Source: an uncultured Candidatus Binatia bacterium
Lineage (GTDB): Bacteria > Desulfobacterota > Binatia > UBA9968 > JAJDTQ01
Direction of reading: 5' to 3'
Length of the DNA stretch: 64,000 nucleotides
NCBI GenBank assembly: GCA_965242525.1
Contig: OZ251459.1
Location: forward strand, 1,920,001 to 1,984,000
The translations under genes and the position numbers were made by a program. The stretch's first letter is position 1; the number at the start of each line of letters is the position of its first letter. Positions 17,758 through 25,246 of this stretch are shown one piece after another. The notes beneath the pieces were generated by a model. The model saw only the letters and a program-made list of their open reading frames with translations, had not been told where the DNA came from and ran no database searches.

Positions 17758-18576
17758 GTGCCGGACAAGGAATGCATCATCGAGGAGATCTCCGAGGAGC
17801 AGGGCATCGCGTGGATCACCCTCAACCGCCCGGAGCGGAAGAACGCCCTGAGCCGGAAGCTGCTGCGCGAGTTGGCCGACAGTCTCGAGGCCCTGGCCGA
17901 CAACGGCGACATCCGCTGCATCGTCACCACCGGGGCCGGGAACGCCTACAGCTCGGGGCTGGACCTGTACGACCTGCGGACGGCTTGGCAGGGCAAGCGG
18001 CGGCTCTACGAAGGCGGCTCGGCGCGGGAGATCGTCACGCTGTTGCGCCAGTGCCCGCAGGTCACGGTGGCCGCGGTCAACGGCTGGGCCCTGGGGGGCG
18101 GGCTGGTGCTGGTGAACGGCCATGACCTGGCCATCGCCGCGGACACCGCGCAGTTCGGCATGCCGGAGATCATCCGCGGGAGCTACGGCGCCACCGCCAC
18201 GCCGACCCTCTTCCGCAGCGGCATCCCCTTCAAGAAGGCGTTCTACATCCAGCTCACCGGCGAGAACATCGCCGGGGTCGAGGCCGAGCGCCTCGGGCTG
18301 GTGTCCAGGACCGTGCCGGAGAAGGACCTGATCCCCTTCGTCCGGGACTTCGCCGCCACCATCGCCAGCCGCCACCCGGTGACCCTGGAGCACGCCAAGA
18401 TCGCCGCCTACACCGCCATGGACCTGGACAACCACCGCGGGCTGCTGGTGGACGAGATCATATCCCACCGCATGCGCGTCTATACCAACCCCCTGAACGA
18501 CGTGGAGGGCTACCTCCAGTCCCAGAAAGGCGGCGGCAACGCGGCCTACGAGAAGCCGGACGCGAAGAAGTCGTAG
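17758..18576 (+). CDS. Enoyl-CoA hydratase/isomerase family protein
   Basis: ITLNRPERKNAL, SSGLDL, AAVNGWALGGG, FGMPEI. Confidence 0.9.
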   Translation: MPDKECIIEEISEEQGIAWITLNRPERKNALSRKLLRELADSLEALADNGDIRCIVTTGAGNAYSSGLDLYDLRTAWQGKRRLYEGGSAREIVTLLRQCPQVTVAAVNGWALGGGLVLVNGHDLAIAADTAQFGMPEIIRGSYGATATPTLFRSGIPFKKAFYIQLTGENIAGVEAERLGLVSRTVPEKDLIPFVRDFAATIASRHPVTLEHAKIAAYTAMDLDNHRGLLVDEIISHRMRVYTNPLNDVEGYLQSQKGGGNAAYEKPDAKKS

Positions 18577-18584
18577 CCGTTGAC

Positions 18585-18977
18585 CTATGCAACCCCTTCC
18601 CTGGACGCCGCACTCGCCAGTTTCCTGTCGAGACCCACGAACCTTGCCCGCCGGCGTTTCGCCGTCTCCACGTAGGCTGCGTCGTAGGCGGTCAGGCCGT
18701 GACGCCTTGCCAGTACCGGTATCTCCCTGTCATCCTGGCGGTCGTCGGTGACGAACCGAAGGTTGCGGAGTCGGCCGAGGTGTGCTTCCGCCGCCTCTGC
18801 CTCGATCCGCTTCCTTCGTTCGGCAACGACCAGGACGTTGCGCATCTCGTGCCAGAAGATCCCGGGCACGACGGCCGTTTCGGTCCGCATTCGCTCGATC
18901 ATCCTGTCCGCAATGGCGATGCCTTCCGGCTCCCTCAGACACCAAGCCGCCGCCAACGAAGCATCCACCACGATCAT
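18585..18977 (-). CDS. vapC: VapC-family PIN domain toxin
   Basis: MIVVDAS, FWHEMRNVL, LTAYDAAY, LDRKL: the conserved acidic PIN residues are present; ATGA overlap with the res stop. Confidence 0.9.
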   Translation of the reverse strand: MIVVDASLAAAWCLREPEGIAIADRMIERMRTETAVVPGIFWHEMRNVLVVAERRKRIEAEAAEAHLGRLRNLRFVTDDRQDDREIPVLARRHGLTAYDAAYVETAKRRRARFVGLDRKLASAASREGVA

Positions 18978-21826
18978 CGGGCTCGACCCTCGTCACGGGC
19001 CTGGCGGACTTCCTCGCTCGTCATGACGGTCCCGCGTCGGTCGCGTTCCCCAAGCATGGCGTTTCCGATGATCTCGACCACGAGATACCGGAAGGTGGGG
19101 CAGTCGGAACGAAACTCTGCCTGGTTTACACGTATGTAATGCCAGGGATTGCCCGTCGCGCCGCTCACCCGGCGGCACCATTCCTGCATGGCCGCGTCCT
19201 TCTCACTGGTGCCCTCCCACTCGCGGCCCTTGGTCTCGATGATCCAGTTCACTTCTTGGCCTTCCGTGTCGCGCTGGACGGCCACCCAGTCCGGGTAGTA
19301 GAACCCGACGGCGCCGCTCGGCTTCAGGTAATCGACGCGGAACGACGTGCCGGAAGCCCCCTGTTCCGTGGTGCCCAGCGCGGCGAAGCGCAGGACGTCG
19401 CCGGCGTTGTCCAGGAACTCCGCAAAGCGGCGCTCGAAATCGTTGTAGGTGGCCACGAAGTTGAAGACCGTCTTCCTCGCTTCCAGAGGCGGAAGGTTCC
19501 GCCGCCAGCCAAAGGGGTTCGTCTCGGACAGGTGGAAGTCCTGTCTGGCGAATTCGATCTCGCTGCGCTCGACGGTGAGCTCGGCGATCTTGCGGACAAG
19601 GTACTTGGCGATGCCTTCTCGTACCTCCAGTCGCGCCAGATGGGAGCGGAGGATGTCGTCATCCAGTTCGACCTCCCGGCCGAAACACCGATTCCCGATG
19701 TACTCCCGGGTCACCGGGTACAGCTCCGCAAAGCGATTGGTCAAACCCGCCTTGGCAGCCACCCGGTTGGTCACATCGGCCAGAAACTCCTGGACGGGAA
19801 GCAGGCCGCCGGAGATGTCGGCCTGGTGCACTTCGGTTTCGGTCGTGGCGAATTCCAGCTTCAACCTGATACGGAACCGCTCGTCGAGCTCTGCCTGGTC
19901 GAAGATCGGTTCGAGGGACTGCACGTCCAGTTCCGACAGTTTGCGATGGTCGTGCTTCAGGCTCGGCTTGGTGATGGGAATGGCGATGTCGTATTCCAGC
20001 CGTTCCTGCACCGGCCGGATGCTGACCGGCGGCGGCGGATCGGTCTCCGTGCTCGCTACACCTACGCCTTCGGCCTCCAGTTGTTCGCGCAGGACGTTGA
20101 GCAGGTTGCGCGTGCCGAGCACTTCCAGGGTCTGCGTCCGATCCGGGCTCACCTGCGTCATCAGGCGCAACCCGCGACCGACCACCTGCTCCGGGAGGAT
20201 TTCGGCCTTCGCGGTGAACGGCCGCAGCCCCAGCACCACCGTCACGTTGCGCACGTCCCACCCCTCGCGCAGCATCATCACGCTGACGATGGCCTTGACC
20301 CTGCTATCGGCCCGGTCGATGTCCCGCGCCGCCATACGGGCCTTCTTGAGTTCTTTCTCGTTCTTGATTTCCCCACTGTTGTTGGTGTGGATGACCAGCA
20401 CCTCGGACTGCTTGAAACCGAACTCCCCGGTCTTCCACAGATACTCGCCCAATGCGTCAGCGTAGTCGATCTTTTCCGCCATGATGAAGAGCACCGGCCT
20501 GATGCCCAGCTTACCGTACACCTTCCGATGCTCCTTCCAGCGTCGGACCGCGGCCTGTAGCCAGTAGCCGTACTTCTCCGCCACGTTGTCCCTGGTAATC
20601 CCGTCGGGATCTTCGGTTGGCTGATTCCTGTCGGCCTCCCTGGTGACGATGAGAGGCGCCTTGACGATCCGATCCTCAACGGCCTGCGCCAGCGGGTAGT
20701 CCACGACCGTCCAGGGAAAATACATGCGGTTCTGGTCCTGCGGCGTAGCCGAGAAGTCGAGCCAGGCGCCGAGGCCGCGCGGCAACGCTTCGTGGATGGC
20801 GAGAAGAGACCTGCTCCAGGCCAGGTCTTCACCGTGGACGTGGTGTGCTTCGTCGTTCAGCACCACGAGGTCCTTGAGCGACTTCACCCGTTCCAGCATG
20901 GAGCGTTGGCCGGATGACGCCAGGTTTTGCGCGTCCTTCCTGCCCAGAAGCGCTTCGACGGGGTTTTTCGGCGTCCACTCCTTCTCTCCTTCGTAGATCT
21001 GCTGGACATTGGTCAGAAAAAGGTTTCCCGATGGATCCGGTTCGGCCGCCTCTCCGGGGAGGATCACCTTTTGTGAGAATCCGGTCCGCCATTCCGGCGG
21101 AATGAGCGGAAGCTGATGGAATATCCGGTTGTTCGCGAAGTCCTTCTCCAATCGTTGATAGACGATGACGTTGGGCGCCACGATGAGGAAATTCGTCGAA
21201 AGCTCCGATCCCGGGACATGCTGTTTGTGAAGCCGCGACCAGACGACCGCCATTGCCATCACCCAGGTCTTGCCCGAACCGGTGGCCATCCTGAAGGCGA
21301 ACCGACGCAAGTTCTCGGGCGGCAGGTCCTGTACGCCGTCCGCTTCCAGCTCCGGCACGTAGCGGCGAAGCTGGCGCCTTCCGTCCATGGTCGTCTGGAA
21401 CTCGATATTCTTCGAGAGCAGGTCTTTCGGAAAGATCGTGGCCCGGGCTTCGATGAGCTCCTTGGCGTCTCGATGGCCGGAGATTTCCACAAGCCAGATC
21501 AGCGTCTCGATCGCTTCGCGCTGGCAAAAGTAATACCGGAAGGGTACGTCGAAACCGGCAACTTCATGATCCTCCTCGAACCAGTAATCCAGCAAGCGCC
21601 GAGTGACATCGGAAGCGCCTCGATAACCGCCATCGCGCCATGCGTCCACCGCATCGCGCACCTTCGGTACCAGCAACAAACGGCTCGGCCGGCGGCCGGA
21701 GTCGTCCTCGCGCCAGCCGGTCGGTGCGTCGGCATCCTTGACCAGGTGGGAAACGGGCCTCTCCCACGGACGGCGGCCCCGAATCTCCGGCAGATCCTTG
21801 TCATAGTCGATGACAGCCCTTGCCAT
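18974..21826 (-). CDS. res: Type III restriction enzyme Res subunit with an extra C-terminal tail
   Basis: QREAIET, MATGSGKT, LNDEAHH, LREGWDV, QVVGRGLR, YYPDW...IIETKG nuclease motif; follows a mod gene. Confidence 0.9.
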   Translation of the reverse strand: MARAVIDYDKDLPEIRGRRPWERPVSHLVKDADAPTGWREDDSGRRPSRLLLVPKVRDAVDAWRDGGYRGASDVTRRLLDYWFEEDHEVAGFDVPFRYYFCQREAIETLIWLVEISGHRDAKELIEARATIFPKDLLSKNIEFQTTMDGRRQLRRYVPELEADGVQDLPPENLRRFAFRMATGSGKTWVMAMAVVWSRLHKQHVPGSELSTNFLIVAPNVIVYQRLEKDFANNRIFHQLPLIPPEWRTGFSQKVILPGEAAEPDPSGNLFLTNVQQIYEGEKEWTPKNPVEALLGRKDAQNLASSGQRSMLERVKSLKDLVVLNDEAHHVHGEDLAWSRSLLAIHEALPRGLGAWLDFSATPQDQNRMYFPWTVVDYPLAQAVEDRIVKAPLIVTREADRNQPTEDPDGITRDNVAEKYGYWLQAAVRRWKEHRKVYGKLGIRPVLFIMAEKIDYADALGEYLWKTGEFGFKQSEVLVIHTNNSGEIKNEKELKKARMAARDIDRADSRVKAIVSVMMLREGWDVRNVTVVLGLRPFTAKAEILPEQVVGRGLRLMTQVSPDRTQTLEVLGTRNLLNVLREQLEAEGVGVASTETDPPPPVSIRPVQERLEYDIAIPITKPSLKHDHRKLSELDVQSLEPIFDQAELDERFRIRLKLEFATTETEVHQADISGGLLPVQEFLADVTNRVAAKAGLTNRFAELYPVTREYIGNRCFGREVELDDDILRSHLARLEVREGIAKYLVRKIAELTVERSEIEFARQDFHLSETNPFGWRRNLPPLEARKTVFNFVATYNDFERRFAEFLDNAGDVLRFAALGTTEQGASGTSFRVDYLKPSGAVGFYYPDWVAVQRDTEGQEVNWIIETKGREWEGTSEKDAAMQEWCRRVSGATGNPWHYIRVNQAEFRSDCPTFRYLVVEIIGNAMLGERDRRGTVMTSEEVRQARDEGRAR

Positions 21827-21880
21827 GATTACCTTATCTCCCGTCGAAGACAAAGACCCGTTTGAAGCGTCAGCATTGTC

Positions 21881-23911
21881 CTACACCTTGACGTCGTATG
21901 CTTGGGACGTGTCGTTGCCGAAGATGTCGATGACCTTGACCAGCACTCGATACTTGCCCGGCTTCTCATAGGTGTGCGCGTCGGACGCGAGGGCCAAGCT
22001 CCGGTCCTTGCGGGTGCGGTAGGCCACCCATCCCTGCATGAAGGTGTCGTTCCGGAAGTCCCAATCCACTGCCCAGTAGTCGATGTAGTCCGACCACTTC
22101 GTGACCTTGCTCCGCACGTCGTCCGGGATGAGGTTAGCGTTGGGGATCACGAAGTCCTTGAGCGCCACCGACACGGTGAGTTTCTTCGGTTTCCTGATCG
22201 CGGCGTCCAAGTAGGCCAGCTCGAAGAAGCGAACGTCACCCTTGTCCGCGGCCTGCTGCTCCATCACTTCACGAGGGATCTGCAACAAAAGGAGCTTGAC
22301 GCCTTCGCGTTTTGCTTCCTGGACCACGAGATTCTGAAGGCCCATTTCCCATTCCCAGCCGAGAACGTGCAGTTCCTTCTGCTTCACTTTGAGACATTCT
22401 TCTACCGAAGACTCGATTTCGCCGATGGTCACCGGGGCGTCCACTGCGCCAACGTGAACCATCGCCCTGCCCTTCTTGCCGTGCAGATGGATCAGGCCGA
22501 CCACGGGTTGGGAGCCATGGAGTTTCAGAATAAAGGCAAGATATTCATAAAGCGCCTGCTCCGCGATCGGCTTATCCCTTTTGCCGAAAGTCACATCCTG
22601 CCAGTACTGACGCTCATACCTGCCAAGATTCAGAACATCGAACGGTTTGCAGTTCCCCATACCGAGCAACCGTTTGCGAGTAATATGAATACCCCATCGT
22701 CCAAGGTCACAACCGATCCAGCGTCTGCCAAGGTTTTCAGCTACAGCGAGCGTCGTGCCGGAACCGCAAAAGAAATCTGCAACAAGGTCATTTGGCCGGC
22801 TAAGCCATGCAATTATACGGGCCAACAATTGTTCATGTTTCTGGGTGGCGTAAGCTTTGCGGTTTTCGTAAGTCTTGACGTCATCCCATACGGTGTCGCC
22901 GATCTTGTCGTCACTGGGGGCAAACCAGTTTTCTACGGTCCCGGTCTGCGACTTCCGAATGAACTCGAGATCCTCACCCGTGTCTCGCCAATATTTCACC
23001 AATGAACGTCCGCCACCTTCTTCGCAAAATTGATTGTAATTCTCAACTGCACGTAATGCTCGTTTCTTTTCCCATTTCCACTGGCCGTGAGTAGGCGTTT
23101 CAGAAAGCAATTCATATCGCATACTTGGCCGATCGGCGCCGCTCCAGAAACGGTGCCAATAGCCTTCAGGTGAAGACGTTTCGTACGGAACCAGAAGATT
23201 GGGAACCCTCGTATCCGGCTGCATGGAGTACCAAATCAATACGTCGTGACCTTGCGGAAGAGCTGTGATTACCTTGAATTGTCGTTGCAGGTTTTTCGTT
23301 ATCGGTCTATGAATCACTATTTCATTCCTGAAGTTTTCAACGCCAAATATCTCATCCAATATCAATCGAAGATGAGGGGTCACATTGGGAGCGACATGAA
23401 CAACAAGGTGGCCTTCTTGAGATATGAGAGACCGGATCAATGTCAAGCGCTCCCTCATCGTCTGCATGTAGCTGATGAGCCCGCGGCCCCAGGTGTCGCG
23501 ATAGGCTTTCTCCTCTACTACCGACGCCTCCTTGTCGAGTCGAACGCTTCCGTCACCGATCTCGGTCGTAAACGAAAAATCTGCTCCTGTGGCAAACGGC
23601 GGATCGATATAGATCAGATCGACCTTCCCTGCGAATTTCTCCAACAGCGACCCCATCACCAACAGGTTGTCACCCCAGATCAGCTTGTTCTTCCAACCAT
23701 CCTCGAAGGTGTCGCCCTCGCTGCCCTCGTAGACGTCGAACAGCGACCCCTGCACGCCGCCCTTCTTCGCCTCGCGCATGGCTCGGCTCTCGTTGACGGT
23801 CTCGATGATCTGGAACGGCAGGTTGACCCGCGGAACTTCCTTGAGCGTTCCGTTTTCGTCGTATTTGCCGGGCCAGATCAGCTCGGTCTTCGTGACGTCG
23901 ATCTTCGCCAT
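21881..23911 (-). CDS. mod: Type III RM Mod subunit (beta-class N6-adenine methyltransferase)
   Basis: LIWGDNL, IYIDPPF (motif IV) before DFFCGSGTT (motif I), YATQK, C-terminal KVIDIFGND. Confidence 0.9.
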   Translation of the reverse strand: MAKIDVTKTELIWPGKYDENGTLKEVPRVNLPFQIIETVNESRAMREAKKGGVQGSLFDVYEGSEGDTFEDGWKNKLIWGDNLLVMGSLLEKFAGKVDLIYIDPPFATGADFSFTTEIGDGSVRLDKEASVVEEKAYRDTWGRGLISYMQTMRERLTLIRSLISQEGHLVVHVAPNVTPHLRLILDEIFGVENFRNEIVIHRPITKNLQRQFKVITALPQGHDVLIWYSMQPDTRVPNLLVPYETSSPEGYWHRFWSGADRPSMRYELLSETPTHGQWKWEKKRALRAVENYNQFCEEGGGRSLVKYWRDTGEDLEFIRKSQTGTVENWFAPSDDKIGDTVWDDVKTYENRKAYATQKHEQLLARIIAWLSRPNDLVADFFCGSGTTLAVAENLGRRWIGCDLGRWGIHITRKRLLGMGNCKPFDVLNLGRYERQYWQDVTFGKRDKPIAEQALYEYLAFILKLHGSQPVVGLIHLHGKKGRAMVHVGAVDAPVTIGEIESSVEECLKVKQKELHVLGWEWEMGLQNLVVQEAKREGVKLLLLQIPREVMEQQAADKGDVRFFELAYLDAAIRKPKKLTVSVALKDFVIPNANLIPDDVRSKVTKWSDYIDYWAVDWDFRNDTFMQGWVAYRTRKDRSLALASDAHTYEKPGKYRVLVKVIDIFGNDTSQAYDVKV

Positions 23912-24426
23912 TACCGGGCTTCTCCGATTCGCTTCAGGTACTCGCTCCCCGCGGGTGTCAGGCGGTATCGCTGCCTGCTGCTGCGCGGCTTGTCCGGGAT
24001 GGTCATTTCGATCAGGCCGGACCCAAGGGCGGGCGCCAGATAGACTTCGTTGAAGTGGTCGCGGTGTTTCAGGCCAAGGGCTTCCTGGAGGCTCTGCCTG
24101 GTCATTTCACCAGACATCGCCCTCAGCAGTCGCACTTCCCCGGTGACTTCCCCGGTAACTTCCCCGGTGACTTGCCCGGTGACTTGCCCGGTAACTTGGG
24201 GGGTCACCCGACCATCCCCCGATACCTCCCGGACTTCCGGGTTCGGACGGAAAATGACGGTGACGAAGCGGTTGGCCTCGAACATCGCCTCCGATTCGCC
24301 GATGACACATCGATCCCGGCACAGCGCCCCCAGGACGATGTTGTGGGTCTTGCCGGAACCGGACCCCGCGGCTACCGGCAACGGCCCATCCGGGTAGTGC
24401 TTCAGGATGGCGGGCGCGATGCTCAC
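23911..24426 (-). pseudogene. Chimeric ORF: UvrD-like helicase N-terminus fused to a Fic/RecG-associated wHTH C-terminus
   Basis: ILKHYPDGPLPVAAGSGSGKT followed by (VTGQ/E)n and LQEALGLKHRDHF..YLAPAL...IEMTIPDKPRSSRQRYRLT; GTGA overlap with radC and TAATG overlap with mod. Confidence 0.6.
24134..24205. repeat. 12-bp tandem repeat, about 6 copies (ACTTSCCCGGTR), encoding VTG(E/Q)
   Basis: acttccccggtg, acttccccggta, acttccccggtg, acttgcccggtg, acttgcccggta, acttggggggtc. Confidence 0.9.
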
Positions 24427-25106
24427 AACAGTCCTGCCTTCCTGAAGCTGAAGGTCTCTTCCGGCGACACCACCAGGTGATCGACGACCCGGAGGCTGAC
24501 GGTCTCGGCGGCCAGCACGATGGCCCGCGTGAGCACCTTGTCGTGCTCGCTGGGCTCGACGTTGCCGTTGGGATGGTTGTGCGCCAGCACGAGCGCCGCG
24601 GCTTGGCGCTTGAGCGCGGCTTCCACGATGCTGCGGGGATACACCGCTGCACGATCGACCGTGCCTTCCTGGAGCGTCTCGACGCCGTTGCGCAGCAGCC
24701 GGCACGCGGAGTCCAGGTACGCCACGGCGAACACCTCGTGCCTGAGGGCGCCGATCTGCATGCGCCAGAAGTCGCCGAGGCGCCCGGAGTCCCGCAGCAC
24801 CTCCGCTCCCTCCGACGTTTCCCGCAGGTAGAGCGCCGCGGATTCGCGGACCACGTGCAGGGCGACCGCGGCGGCCTCGCCGATGCCTTCCACCGACTGC
24901 AACTCGGACAGCGGCGCGTCCAGGACTCCCCGCAGGCTGCCGAAGCGCTTGAGCAGCGCCTTGGCGGGCTGCTTCACGTCCGAGCGGGGGATGGCCAGGG
25001 TCAGCAGCAGCTCGATGACCTCGTGCTCCGCGAACCCCGCCAAACCGCTGTCGAGGAAACGTCCGCGGAGACGTTTGCGGTGGCCGTGGTAGTGCGGCTG
25101 TTCCAT
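24423..25106 (-). CDS. radC: RadC (UPF0758, JAB domain) family protein
   Basis: GHRKRLR, ELLLTLAIPRSDVK, HhH (VEGIGE), GTVD, LAHNHPNG..PSEHD, VVDHLVV. Confidence 0.92.
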   Translation of the reverse strand: MEQPHYHGHRKRLRGRFLDSGLAGFAEHEVIELLLTLAIPRSDVKQPAKALLKRFGSLRGVLDAPLSELQSVEGIGEAAAVALHVVRESAALYLRETSEGAEVLRDSGRLGDFWRMQIGALRHEVFAVAYLDSACRLLRNGVETLQEGTVDRAAVYPRSIVEAALKRQAAALVLAHNHPNGNVEPSEHDKVLTRAIVLAAETVSLRVVDHLVVSPEETFSFRKAGLL

Positions 25107-25141
25107 CCTCGAGCCGTCCCGTGGTCGTGGACCGGGCCTTG

Positions 25142-25246
25142 ATGTTCTCCCATCCGGGCCGGGACACGGACCGCATCCTGCGGGAGGTCCTGGGCTACGA
25201 CCCTGCGCGCATCGAGCGGCTCCGGGAGGGCGGCGTCCCGGAGTAA
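25142..25246 (+). pseudogene. C-terminal remnant of a CaiB/BaiF (class III) CoA-transferase
   Basis: PGRDTDRILREVLGYDPARIERLREGGV* resembles the family terminus G(E/Q)HTDEVL..LGY....I..L...GV. Confidence 0.6.

Follow-up and report, generated by a model that had tools for sequence, protein, structure and literature searches.

A Type III restriction subunit ends in a VapB-like tail and overlaps a vapC gene: a probable fused antitoxin

In solved VapBC complexes, the C-terminal region of the antitoxin VapB covers the active site of the PIN-domain toxin. A different arrangement is known from CapRel(SJ46), in which an antitoxin and its own toxin form one protein and the antitoxin part senses the phage. 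Here we analysed a mod-res-vapC locus within 64,000 nucleotides (nt) of DNA from an uncultured Candidatus Binatia bacterium (assembly GCA_965242525.1, contig OZ251459.1, positions 1,920,001 to 1,984,000; this whole stretch is called the window). Matelska et al. (2017) described Type I restriction subunits to which PIN genes are coupled, in some cases with no antitoxin, and stated that direct interaction of a toxin-antitoxin system with a restriction system 'has not been shown yet' (PMC5499597). Wilbanks et al. (2022) found vapC or hicA, with no antitoxin, beside 6 of the 23 methyltransferase genes of one genome and proposed an analogy with PrrC for those orphan toxins (PMC9296519). A 2025 review treats PrrC and PARIS as restriction guardians (PMC12707154). 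Orphan vapC genes beside restriction systems are already known; a fused antitoxin tail was not found in print, as full-text literature searches, supplements aside, yielded no account of a restriction subunit to which the end of an antitoxin is fused.

We propose that the antitoxin of this VapC is part of the restriction subunit Res. In this reading, to which we give a probability of roughly three in four, a VapB antitoxin has been reduced to its toxin-binding end (~37 residues, two short helices) and fused to the C-terminus of Res; that the fused tail neutralises the toxin we regard as highly probable. Ribosomes finishing the tail would restart on vapC via an ATGA overlap and make about one VapC per Res. 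The tail would bind the PIN RNase and block its active site, as the free VapB C-terminal end does, and the cell would be safe from the toxin only as long as it goes on producing full-length Res. Were Res lost, truncated or destroyed, the freed VapC would arrest the cell. The restriction cassette would become addictive and its 3' end could not decay; a phage-triggered fail-safe would be a possible extension of such addiction.

The three genes form an operon on the minus strand, head to tail in the order mod, res and vapC, with the following features (window coordinates):

21881..23911, minus strand: mod, Type III DNA methyltransferase, 676 amino acids (aa) (Pfam N6_N4_Mtase 1.9e-31; PADLOC MTase_III 7.6e-116)
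18974..21853, minus strand: res, Type III restriction subunit (helicase plus PD-(D/E)xK nuclease), tail included (Pfam ResIII 6.3e-15; PADLOC REase_III 2.5e-18)
19199..19474, minus strand: endonuclease domain of Res, residues 794-885 (weak match to Pfam RE_endonuc, 20 bits, below cut-off)
18977..19090, minus strand: VapB-like tail, last 38 aa of Res, RYLVVEIIGNAMLGERDRRGTVMTSEEVRQARDEGRAR (kept in 119 of the 120 best homologues; aligned with free antitoxins by hhalign)
19055..19057, minus strand: internal in-frame ATG in the tail (M in 103, V in 8, I in 3, L in 1 and undetermined in 2 of 117 homologues)
18987..18991, minus strand: GAGGG, Shine-Dalgarno-like, within tail codons D-E-G (read from the sequence; equivalent GAGGG or AAGGG in relatives)
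18974..18977, minus strand: ATGA, in which the res stop TGA (18976-18974) overlaps the vapC ATG (18977-18975) (read from the sequence)
18585..18977, minus strand: vapC, PIN-domain toxin, 130 aa, beginning MIVVDAS (Pfam PIN 2.8e-11; 159 homologues)

As expected of a Type III system, Mod is followed by a Res with an SF2 helicase and a C-terminal PD-(D/E)xK nuclease. Res comprises 959 aa from a TTG; the ATG at 21826, 27 nt downstream, gives the 950-aa database form and is the probable start. GSGKT, DEAH, D846, E864 and K866 are invariant in 20 homologues, and NCBIfam gives a partial match to the BPTD_3080-family restriction endonuclease (3.9e-84, below cut-off). The protein usually ends shortly after the endonuclease domain, and tail-less relatives stop about at the tail start; here the frame continues to ...PTFRYLVVEIIGNAMLGERDRRGTVMTSEEVRQARDEGRAR. 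VapC shows the PIN domain and the four conserved acidic residues of VapBC toxins, D5, E44, D99 and D117, which are invariant or nearly so in 46 relatives. Its AlphaFold2 (AF2) model has a PIN fold with a predicted local distance difference test score (pLDDT) of 95, and Foldseek aligned this model with PAE0151 (template modelling score, TM, 0.77) and also with VapC toxins of solved VapBC complexes. A sequence search of the PDB returned distant PIN proteins only and no close VapBC complex, and PADLOC had no match for VapC.

At the junction, the stop of an upstream coding sequence overlaps the toxin start, as in VapBC pairs, with the res 3' end in the upstream position. The ATGA overlap suggests tight 1:1 translational coupling of res and vapC, and GAGGG is a putative ribosome-binding site for vapC. 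A convergent enoyl-CoA hydratase gene ends at 18576, only 9 nt beyond the vapC stop, so that there is no room for a separate antitoxin gene on either side. One other open reading frame (ORF) lies over the res 3' end; it is 62 aa long and out of frame, and was not scanned against the family libraries. An earlier reading made from the letters alone (the sequence-only reading) had claimed a Res tail beyond the usual end of the fold, the ATGA overlap, the retained acidic residues of VapC and the lack of an adjacent antitoxin gene, and all four agree with what we found.

The tail has no match in Pfam or NCBIfam, and its kinship is seen in comparison with free antitoxins. The closest annotated relatives of VapC lie on plasmids of Rhizobium, Sinorhizobium and Ensifer (127 records, the best 45-47% identical), and in both annotated loci that were opened (L194 and L195) the gene upstream of the plasmid VapC encodes a Phd/YefM antitoxin. 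A free Phd/YefM antitoxin from a Rhizobium rhizogenes plasmid, upstream of a 45%-identical VapC, ends in ...VTQEEIRAWRDEGRA; another free end, upstream of plasmid VapCs that are 45-47% identical, reads ...VTNDEILDWKREGQRF. The final residues are ...AKPVTQEEIRAWRDEGRA in L195 and ...AKPVTNDEILDWKREGQRF in L194, the latter identical in the unannotated locus L196, and ...GTVMTSEEVRQARDEGRAR in the Res tail. BLASTP of the tail against the L195 antitoxin, a single comparison, aligned 10 of 15 residues as identical (E 3e-5). When a profile of 19 tails was compared with four free Phd-type antitoxins by hhalign, the match reached 91.4% probability (E 9.1e-7) over 19 columns running to both C-termini. 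Pfam PF02604 (Phd/YefM) matches the free antitoxins of L195 and L198 and neither Res nor its tail. On viral contigs, VapC relatives (33-38% identity) stand behind small antitoxins with other N-terminal parts, whose ends, ...GGISIRELLEDGRRG, ...GGLSIKGLVSEGRR and ...GVRIRDLIHEGHKY, are related to the tail. At the level of sequence, these comparisons show the tail to be homologous to the C-terminal end of Phd/YefM-type VapB antitoxins; as with VapB, the C-terminal region resembles known toxin-binding ends both by BLASTP and by hhalign. Both the VapB-like character assigned to the tail by the sequence-only reading and the antitoxin-end motif that it had named proved real, the motif being that of the Rhizobium rhizogenes protein.

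We then asked how widely the tail is kept. With the last 260 residues of Res as query, 1420 homologues were obtained; over this region, identity is 65-100% for the best 120. Of these, 119 end in the tail, 117 by motif search and two (P0057, P0084) as variants; the sole exception, P0093, stops inside the tail start. Close tail-less relatives (L004, L006-L010), 61-76% identical overall, end about at the tail start and have no PIN gene that we could find. For the 37 tail codons of the window, L114 and L115, the nonsynonymous rate (dN) is 0.19-0.28 and the synonymous rate (dS) 1.3-2.4, a small sample with dS near saturation, and the tail codons are at least as constrained as the preceding 38 codons. 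This supports purifying selection on the tail. In the AF2 model of the last 75 aa of Res, helices span residues 37-56 and 62-73 with a loop between them, at moderate confidence (pLDDT 78).

The history of the tail was approached with a tree of 146 Res proteins, built on their last 300 residues, from which the tail columns were lost to the filling filter. A quick tree search scattered the tail-bearing rows (4 changes). A tree holding all 24 tail-bearing rows together was better by 45 log-likelihood units and had a p value of 0.907 in the approximately unbiased test (p-AU), which was run on 139 rows after removal of 7 long or gappy ones. Since this one-clade tree is not rejected, a single origin of the tail followed by spread is compatible with the data.

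To relate the tail to its toxin, 160 Res loci were fetched, at least 80 from species genomes and 80 from metagenomes; 154 of them have a complete res 3' end. Three carry the tail: L005, from a Gemmatimonadota genome, L114 and L115. In all three the ATG of a PIN gene overlaps the res stop as TGATG, and the PIN proteins are 45-62% identical to the VapC of the window; the search for tailed Res homologues with PIN genes in other genomes, suggested with the sequence-only reading, was thus successful. Overlaps of stop and start (TGATG, ATGA or TTGA) are found in L005, L114 and L115 and also in L080, L122, L002 and L198, which are described below. The other 151 loci were scanned for PIN genes in two ways, by Pfam on the longest ORF with a start between -60 and +300 nt relative to the stop (139 loci that extend 400 nt or more past it, yielding 103 distinct ORFs) and by phmmer with seven PIN queries against 2138 ORFs of at least 50 aa within 1.5 kb. 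Among these loci an immediately overlapping PIN gene occurs in L080 and L122 and a distal, frameshifted one in L173; Pfam and phmmer revealed no further PIN, where remote subfamilies further downstream could escape.

Nine further pairs of a tail-bearing Res and a VapC homologue, five of which were rechecked, have longest contigs equal in size (14373, 16647, 196133, 10282, 29788, 3072278, 5614, 3693727 and 3446630 bases). This indicates that the members of each pair share a contig, adjacency not being implied. Within 401 genomes of the phylum of the window, the Res C-terminus matched in 35, and the tail profile picked up only L198, a free antitoxin, one internal match and the two copies in the genome to which the window belongs. 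The internal match, in a 401-aa ORF with no PIN gene beside it, was taken as chance. The two copies in the own genome are the Res tail and a tail on an Nmad2 protein, and the profile found no free antitoxin of this kind there. Plasmids searched with the Res C-terminus gave no match, viral contigs yielded no tail-bearing locus, and among 33 genomes of the phylum of genome G401 only G401 itself had one. Wherever the DNA context was readable, the data support a link between the tail and an overlapping PIN gene.

One tail-less locus stands apart. In L173 (1162-1855) the res gene is followed, after ~320 nt, by a free 60-aa ORF and, ~650 nt downstream, by a PIN gene split by a frameshift. L173 possibly pictures the state before the fusion. 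The likely origin of the tail is a deletion that joined res to the 3' end of vapB, and L173 combines a tail-less res, a free small ORF and a PIN gene.

The tail is also found outside Res. Searching 1.84 billion representative proteins with the tail profile (cut-off E<=1e-3) returned 18 proteins, of which 17 match at the extreme C-terminus or no more than three residues from it; P0264 (2219 aa), with six internal matches, is probably a low-complexity match. Among shorter proteins, searching with the tail itself brought up three HEPN proteins of 171-177 aa (P0126-P0128; HEPN 1.5e-14), which have the same 35-residue end at 63-66% identity. The tail also ends RadC-N-like helix-hairpin-helix proteins (P0252, UPF0758_N at 30.8 bits; P0253, weaker and below cut-off), a fragment of a nucleotidyltransferase (P0258, 2.9e-10) and the 50-aa protein P0265, which is little more than a tail; the remaining profile matches include Res fragments. 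The gene neighbourhood was read for one non-Res carrier, the Nmad2 protein (262 aa, Pfam 4.5e-75) that the genome of the window encodes (L002, G000:C1:3044281-3047667, ORFs 707-1495 and 1501-1911). Its C-terminal extension ends in ...LRGLSVRQMVEEGRRY and its stop overlaps a PIN gene as TTGA. The PIN protein is 37% identical to the VapC of the window, which makes this a second fused-tail pair of the same genome. The free counterpart of the Nmad2 tail, a Phd antitoxin, is encoded in L198, from a different genome of this phylum; it ends in ...LAGLSIRQLVEEGRL and is followed by a PIN gene. On these matches, the tail is shown to be a portable module.

Elsewhere in the same genome (L003, G000:C1:2596763-2600140), ORF 1262-1498 encodes a 78-aa FitA-like ribbon-helix-helix (RHH) antitoxin that ends in ...DSVVLLREDRDR. 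The next ORF (1495-2322) encodes a 275-aa PIN protein fused to DUF3775.

Res proteins of two other lineages carry antitoxin-like ends of their own. The Res of L080, from a Bacteroidales genome, is 32% identical to that of the window and has an extra C-terminal end, ...GDPVEWQKKDRTDRKINGL; its stop overlaps a PIN gene (Pfam PIN 6.3e-15) as ATGA (L080:3092-3604). The Res of L122 has the extra end ...LPRDLAANVDLYLYGGNGEDK and likewise overlaps a PIN gene (Pfam PIN 3.2e-7) as ATGA (L122:2501-3180). Neither PIN protein shows sequence kinship to the VapC of the window beyond the fold. On plasmids, the nearest relatives of the L122 PIN are preceded by free small proteins that end in ...EEHDHYLYGSPKKRQ and ...NHDAYLYGT, so the common end is ...D.YLYG (...DLYLYGG in L122 Res; ...HDHYLYGS and ...HDAYLYGT in the free partners). 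The L080 extension resembles a free partner end, ...TVANWIEAQRRQDWPED, more weakly. In the tree, L080 groups, at 99% support, with three Res proteins that lack a tail and are up to 77% identical, and L122 is placed among tail-less relatives. From these placements it follows that a PIN gene with an antitoxin end was captured at least three times by this Res family; at the level of the tree, independent and repeated origins of such extensions are shown.

Other additions at the end of res were seen as well. A Res relative in L120 (930-1610) has a C-terminal Peptidase_S24 (LexA-like) domain (2e-13) where the tail would be, and L147 has another long extension of ~200 aa that has no Pfam match. DruA of the Druantia family follows directly after tail-less res genes in L124, L171, L178 and L179 (E 1e-110 to 6e-124) and, weakly, in L007. 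In further loci the first gene after res encodes RhuM, Fic, an OLD-type ATPase, AAA_13, GmrSD_N, a Zeta toxin or Tox-REase-3. The position downstream of res looks like a variable cargo slot. On the other side of the operon, an ORF upstream of mod (window 23911-25176, minus strand) keeps a Fic-like C-terminal domain (7.2e-26); its N-terminal side, a proline/arginine-rich part followed by QVTG/EVTG repeats, gives it a remnant-like look.

Some signs suggest that the tail is needed. In three database proteins (P0124, P0125 and P0254), the first ~25-45 residues of Mod are followed in frame by a C-terminal part of Res with its tail, which is 93% and 89% identical to that of the window in P0124 and P0125 and more distant in P0254. 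In all four metagenomic runs (X1, X2, X4 and X5), a joint within res connects 19397 to 21266 with 8 letters between them, a net change of -1860 nt that stays in frame, at 85% likeness; it may stem from other organisms. Over window positions 18300-24100 in these runs, the summed contig depth of the mod/res core is 10-50x that of vapC and the tail; numerous joints fall within mod and res, and contig breaks occur near 19251. As the genome itself has a single copy, related copies must be common in the metagenome samples. The chimeras and the joint fit, thinly, what would be expected if the restriction genes could decay only as long as translation of the tail continues.

As to what the arrangement is for, addiction of the restriction cassette is the main role that we favour, tentatively and at somewhat less than even odds. 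Type III systems by themselves are poor at post-segregational killing. We favour addiction because of this weakness and because the decay products keep the tail. Addiction and a PrrC-like fail-safe would not be mutually exclusive.

Several points weigh against the reading as a whole. Binding of the tail, inhibition of VapC, its toxicity and the trigger are steps that we infer. The fusion has neither a DNA-binding domain nor evident lability, the hallmarks of Type II antitoxins. As the DNA-binding domain is gone, the usual autoregulation is gone too, and with lability also lacking, release of the toxin after gene loss is not assured; the fusion may not be labile at all, which weakens the case for addiction. 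The conservation of the final D/E-E-G-R may partly reflect the vapC ribosome-binding site encoded there, since these codons also spell a GAGG-like site, and part of the conservation of the tail end may thus act at the RNA level. The Mod-Res chimeras could be products of assembly or gene calling, and the read-level in-frame joint, at 85% likeness, is weak. Finally, gene context was read for three tail-bearing relatives and the window, and ~107 of the 119 tail-bearing proteins lie outside both this set and the nine same-contig pairs.

A different benefit is conceivable with the same fused antitoxin. Res might hold VapC latent as a guard, comparable to PrrC, and the RNase, once released by a phage anti-restriction factor, by proteolysis of Res or by a conformational change of Res on unmodified DNA, would stop translation and abort the infection. 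This differs from our proposal in trigger and benefit only, and we consider it possible, if doubtful. The presence of the tail on proteins of conflict systems (Type III Res, HEPN, Nmad2), the capture of PIN genes at least three times by this Res family and the other defence cargo after res in relatives (DruA, RhuM, Fic, OLD-type ATPase, GmrSD_N) speak for a guard. So do the PrrC analogy already drawn for orphan vapC genes near restriction systems (PMC9296519) and the guardian role under which PrrC and PARIS are reviewed (PMC12707154). However, no phage-related trigger can be read from the sequence, VapC lacks a PADLOC match, and the data do not separate a guard from plain addiction.

A broader variant, which we hold to be speculative, is that a ~35-residue VapC-clamping peptide serves as a plug-in that wires a PIN RNase to unrelated conflict proteins, with Res acting as a phage-sensing antitoxin. 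Its targets would comprise Type III Res, at least three times, and HEPN, Nmad2, RadC-N-like and nucleotidyltransferase proteins. Anti-restriction attack, turnover of Res or engagement of foreign DNA would release VapC and abort the infection. If true, it would account as well for the orphan vapC genes described next to restriction systems.

Recruitment rather than inhibition is improbable. The tail would then dock a PIN nuclease that is active and adds a subunit to the restriction complex, for instance to cut nucleic acid at the restriction site, and VapC would be no toxin in need of neutralisation. Tight 1:1 translational coupling would suit such a subunit, and PIN nucleases in antitoxin-less operons have been raised as possible restriction modules by Matelska et al. 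(PMC5499597). However, the tail goes back to the antitoxin end found in canonical VapBC pairs, and the same tail sits on unrelated small proteins and on a 50-aa peptide. An antitoxin end is also what covers the active site in the solved VapBC complexes. Marginally less probable still is that the antitoxin is a 27-aa peptide started at the internal ATG (19057), as the sequence-only reading had suggested, or a proteolytic fragment, with the fusion being incidental. The ATG is in frame and the stand-alone P0265 is little more than a tail, but 12 of 117 homologues have V, I or L in place of the methionine, inspection by eye shows no clear ribosome-binding site ahead of it, and the tail is in frame with Res in 119 of 120 homologues. 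With its position this variable, the ATG was ruled out as a conserved start.

That the fusion is a functionless accident, a recent in-frame deletion or an assembly error unique to the window, has next to no probability: deletions in mod and res are many in the window and in related metagenomic contigs, but the tail is kept in homologues down to 65% identity and in other phyla (L005), under purifying selection, and an origin in a single clade is not rejected. We therefore ruled out a recent chance deletion; the fusion is old and widespread rather than unique to this window. From the deletion alternative of the sequence-only reading, the recent local event falls, while a deletion joining res to the 3' end of vapB stands as the likely origin.

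The proposal offers an answer to a published puzzle, namely how orphan PIN toxins beside restriction systems stay harmless (PMC5499597, PMC9296519). If the tail binds VapC, there would be a direct physical link between a toxin-antitoxin pair and a restriction enzyme. Repeated fusions, together with the tail on other defence-type proteins, suggest a general way to tie a toxin to the integrity of a protein. For annotation, antitoxins reduced to tails escape domain searches. The idea is directly testable, as a 38-residue peptide and three genes suffice.

Among known systems, the locus is most readily compared with canonical VapBC pairs with a Phd/YefM-type VapB, such as those of the Rhizobium and Sinorhizobium plasmids (L194, L195). 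It shares with them a PIN toxin that is 45-47% identical, the antitoxin C-terminal motif ...T.EE(I/V)...(R/K)(D/E)EGR and the overlap of the upstream stop with the toxin start. In contrast, Pfam and NCBIfam reveal in Res no N-terminal Phd, AbrB, RHH or helix-turn-helix (HTH) domain of the kind that a small separate VapB carries, and the PF02604 fold that defines the Phd/YefM family is absent from Res and tail; only the last ~37 antitoxin residues are present, at the end of a 950-aa restriction subunit. With CapRel(SJ46) the locus has in common that an antitoxin element is covalently joined to another functional protein, whereas here that partner is a restriction enzyme and the toxin stands by itself. 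For PrrC, we know of no fused antitoxin peptide. PrrC-EcoprrI resembles the locus in having an RNase within a restriction-modification operon, held by the restriction enzyme, as would be the case here (PMC12707154), and the review's account of that system mentions no fused antitoxin peptide (PMC12707154). PrrC is a HEPN/NTPase anticodon nuclease in a Type Ic hsd locus; here we find a 130-aa PIN protein in a Type III locus, a covalently fused VapB tail as the link and no known trigger. The orphan vapC and hicA genes reported beside restriction systems likewise comprise a PIN gene next to restriction genes with no recognisable antitoxin; those in the published accounts are mainly Type I and the absence of the antitoxin is left unexplained there, whereas here the antitoxin would be the Res tail (PMC9296519, PMC5499597). 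Because Mod, Res and VapC have the features of a Type III system and a VapBC toxin, while the separate VapB antitoxin and the PrrC-type nuclease are both absent, we interpret the locus as a VapBC pair whose antitoxin has been reduced to the tail of Res.

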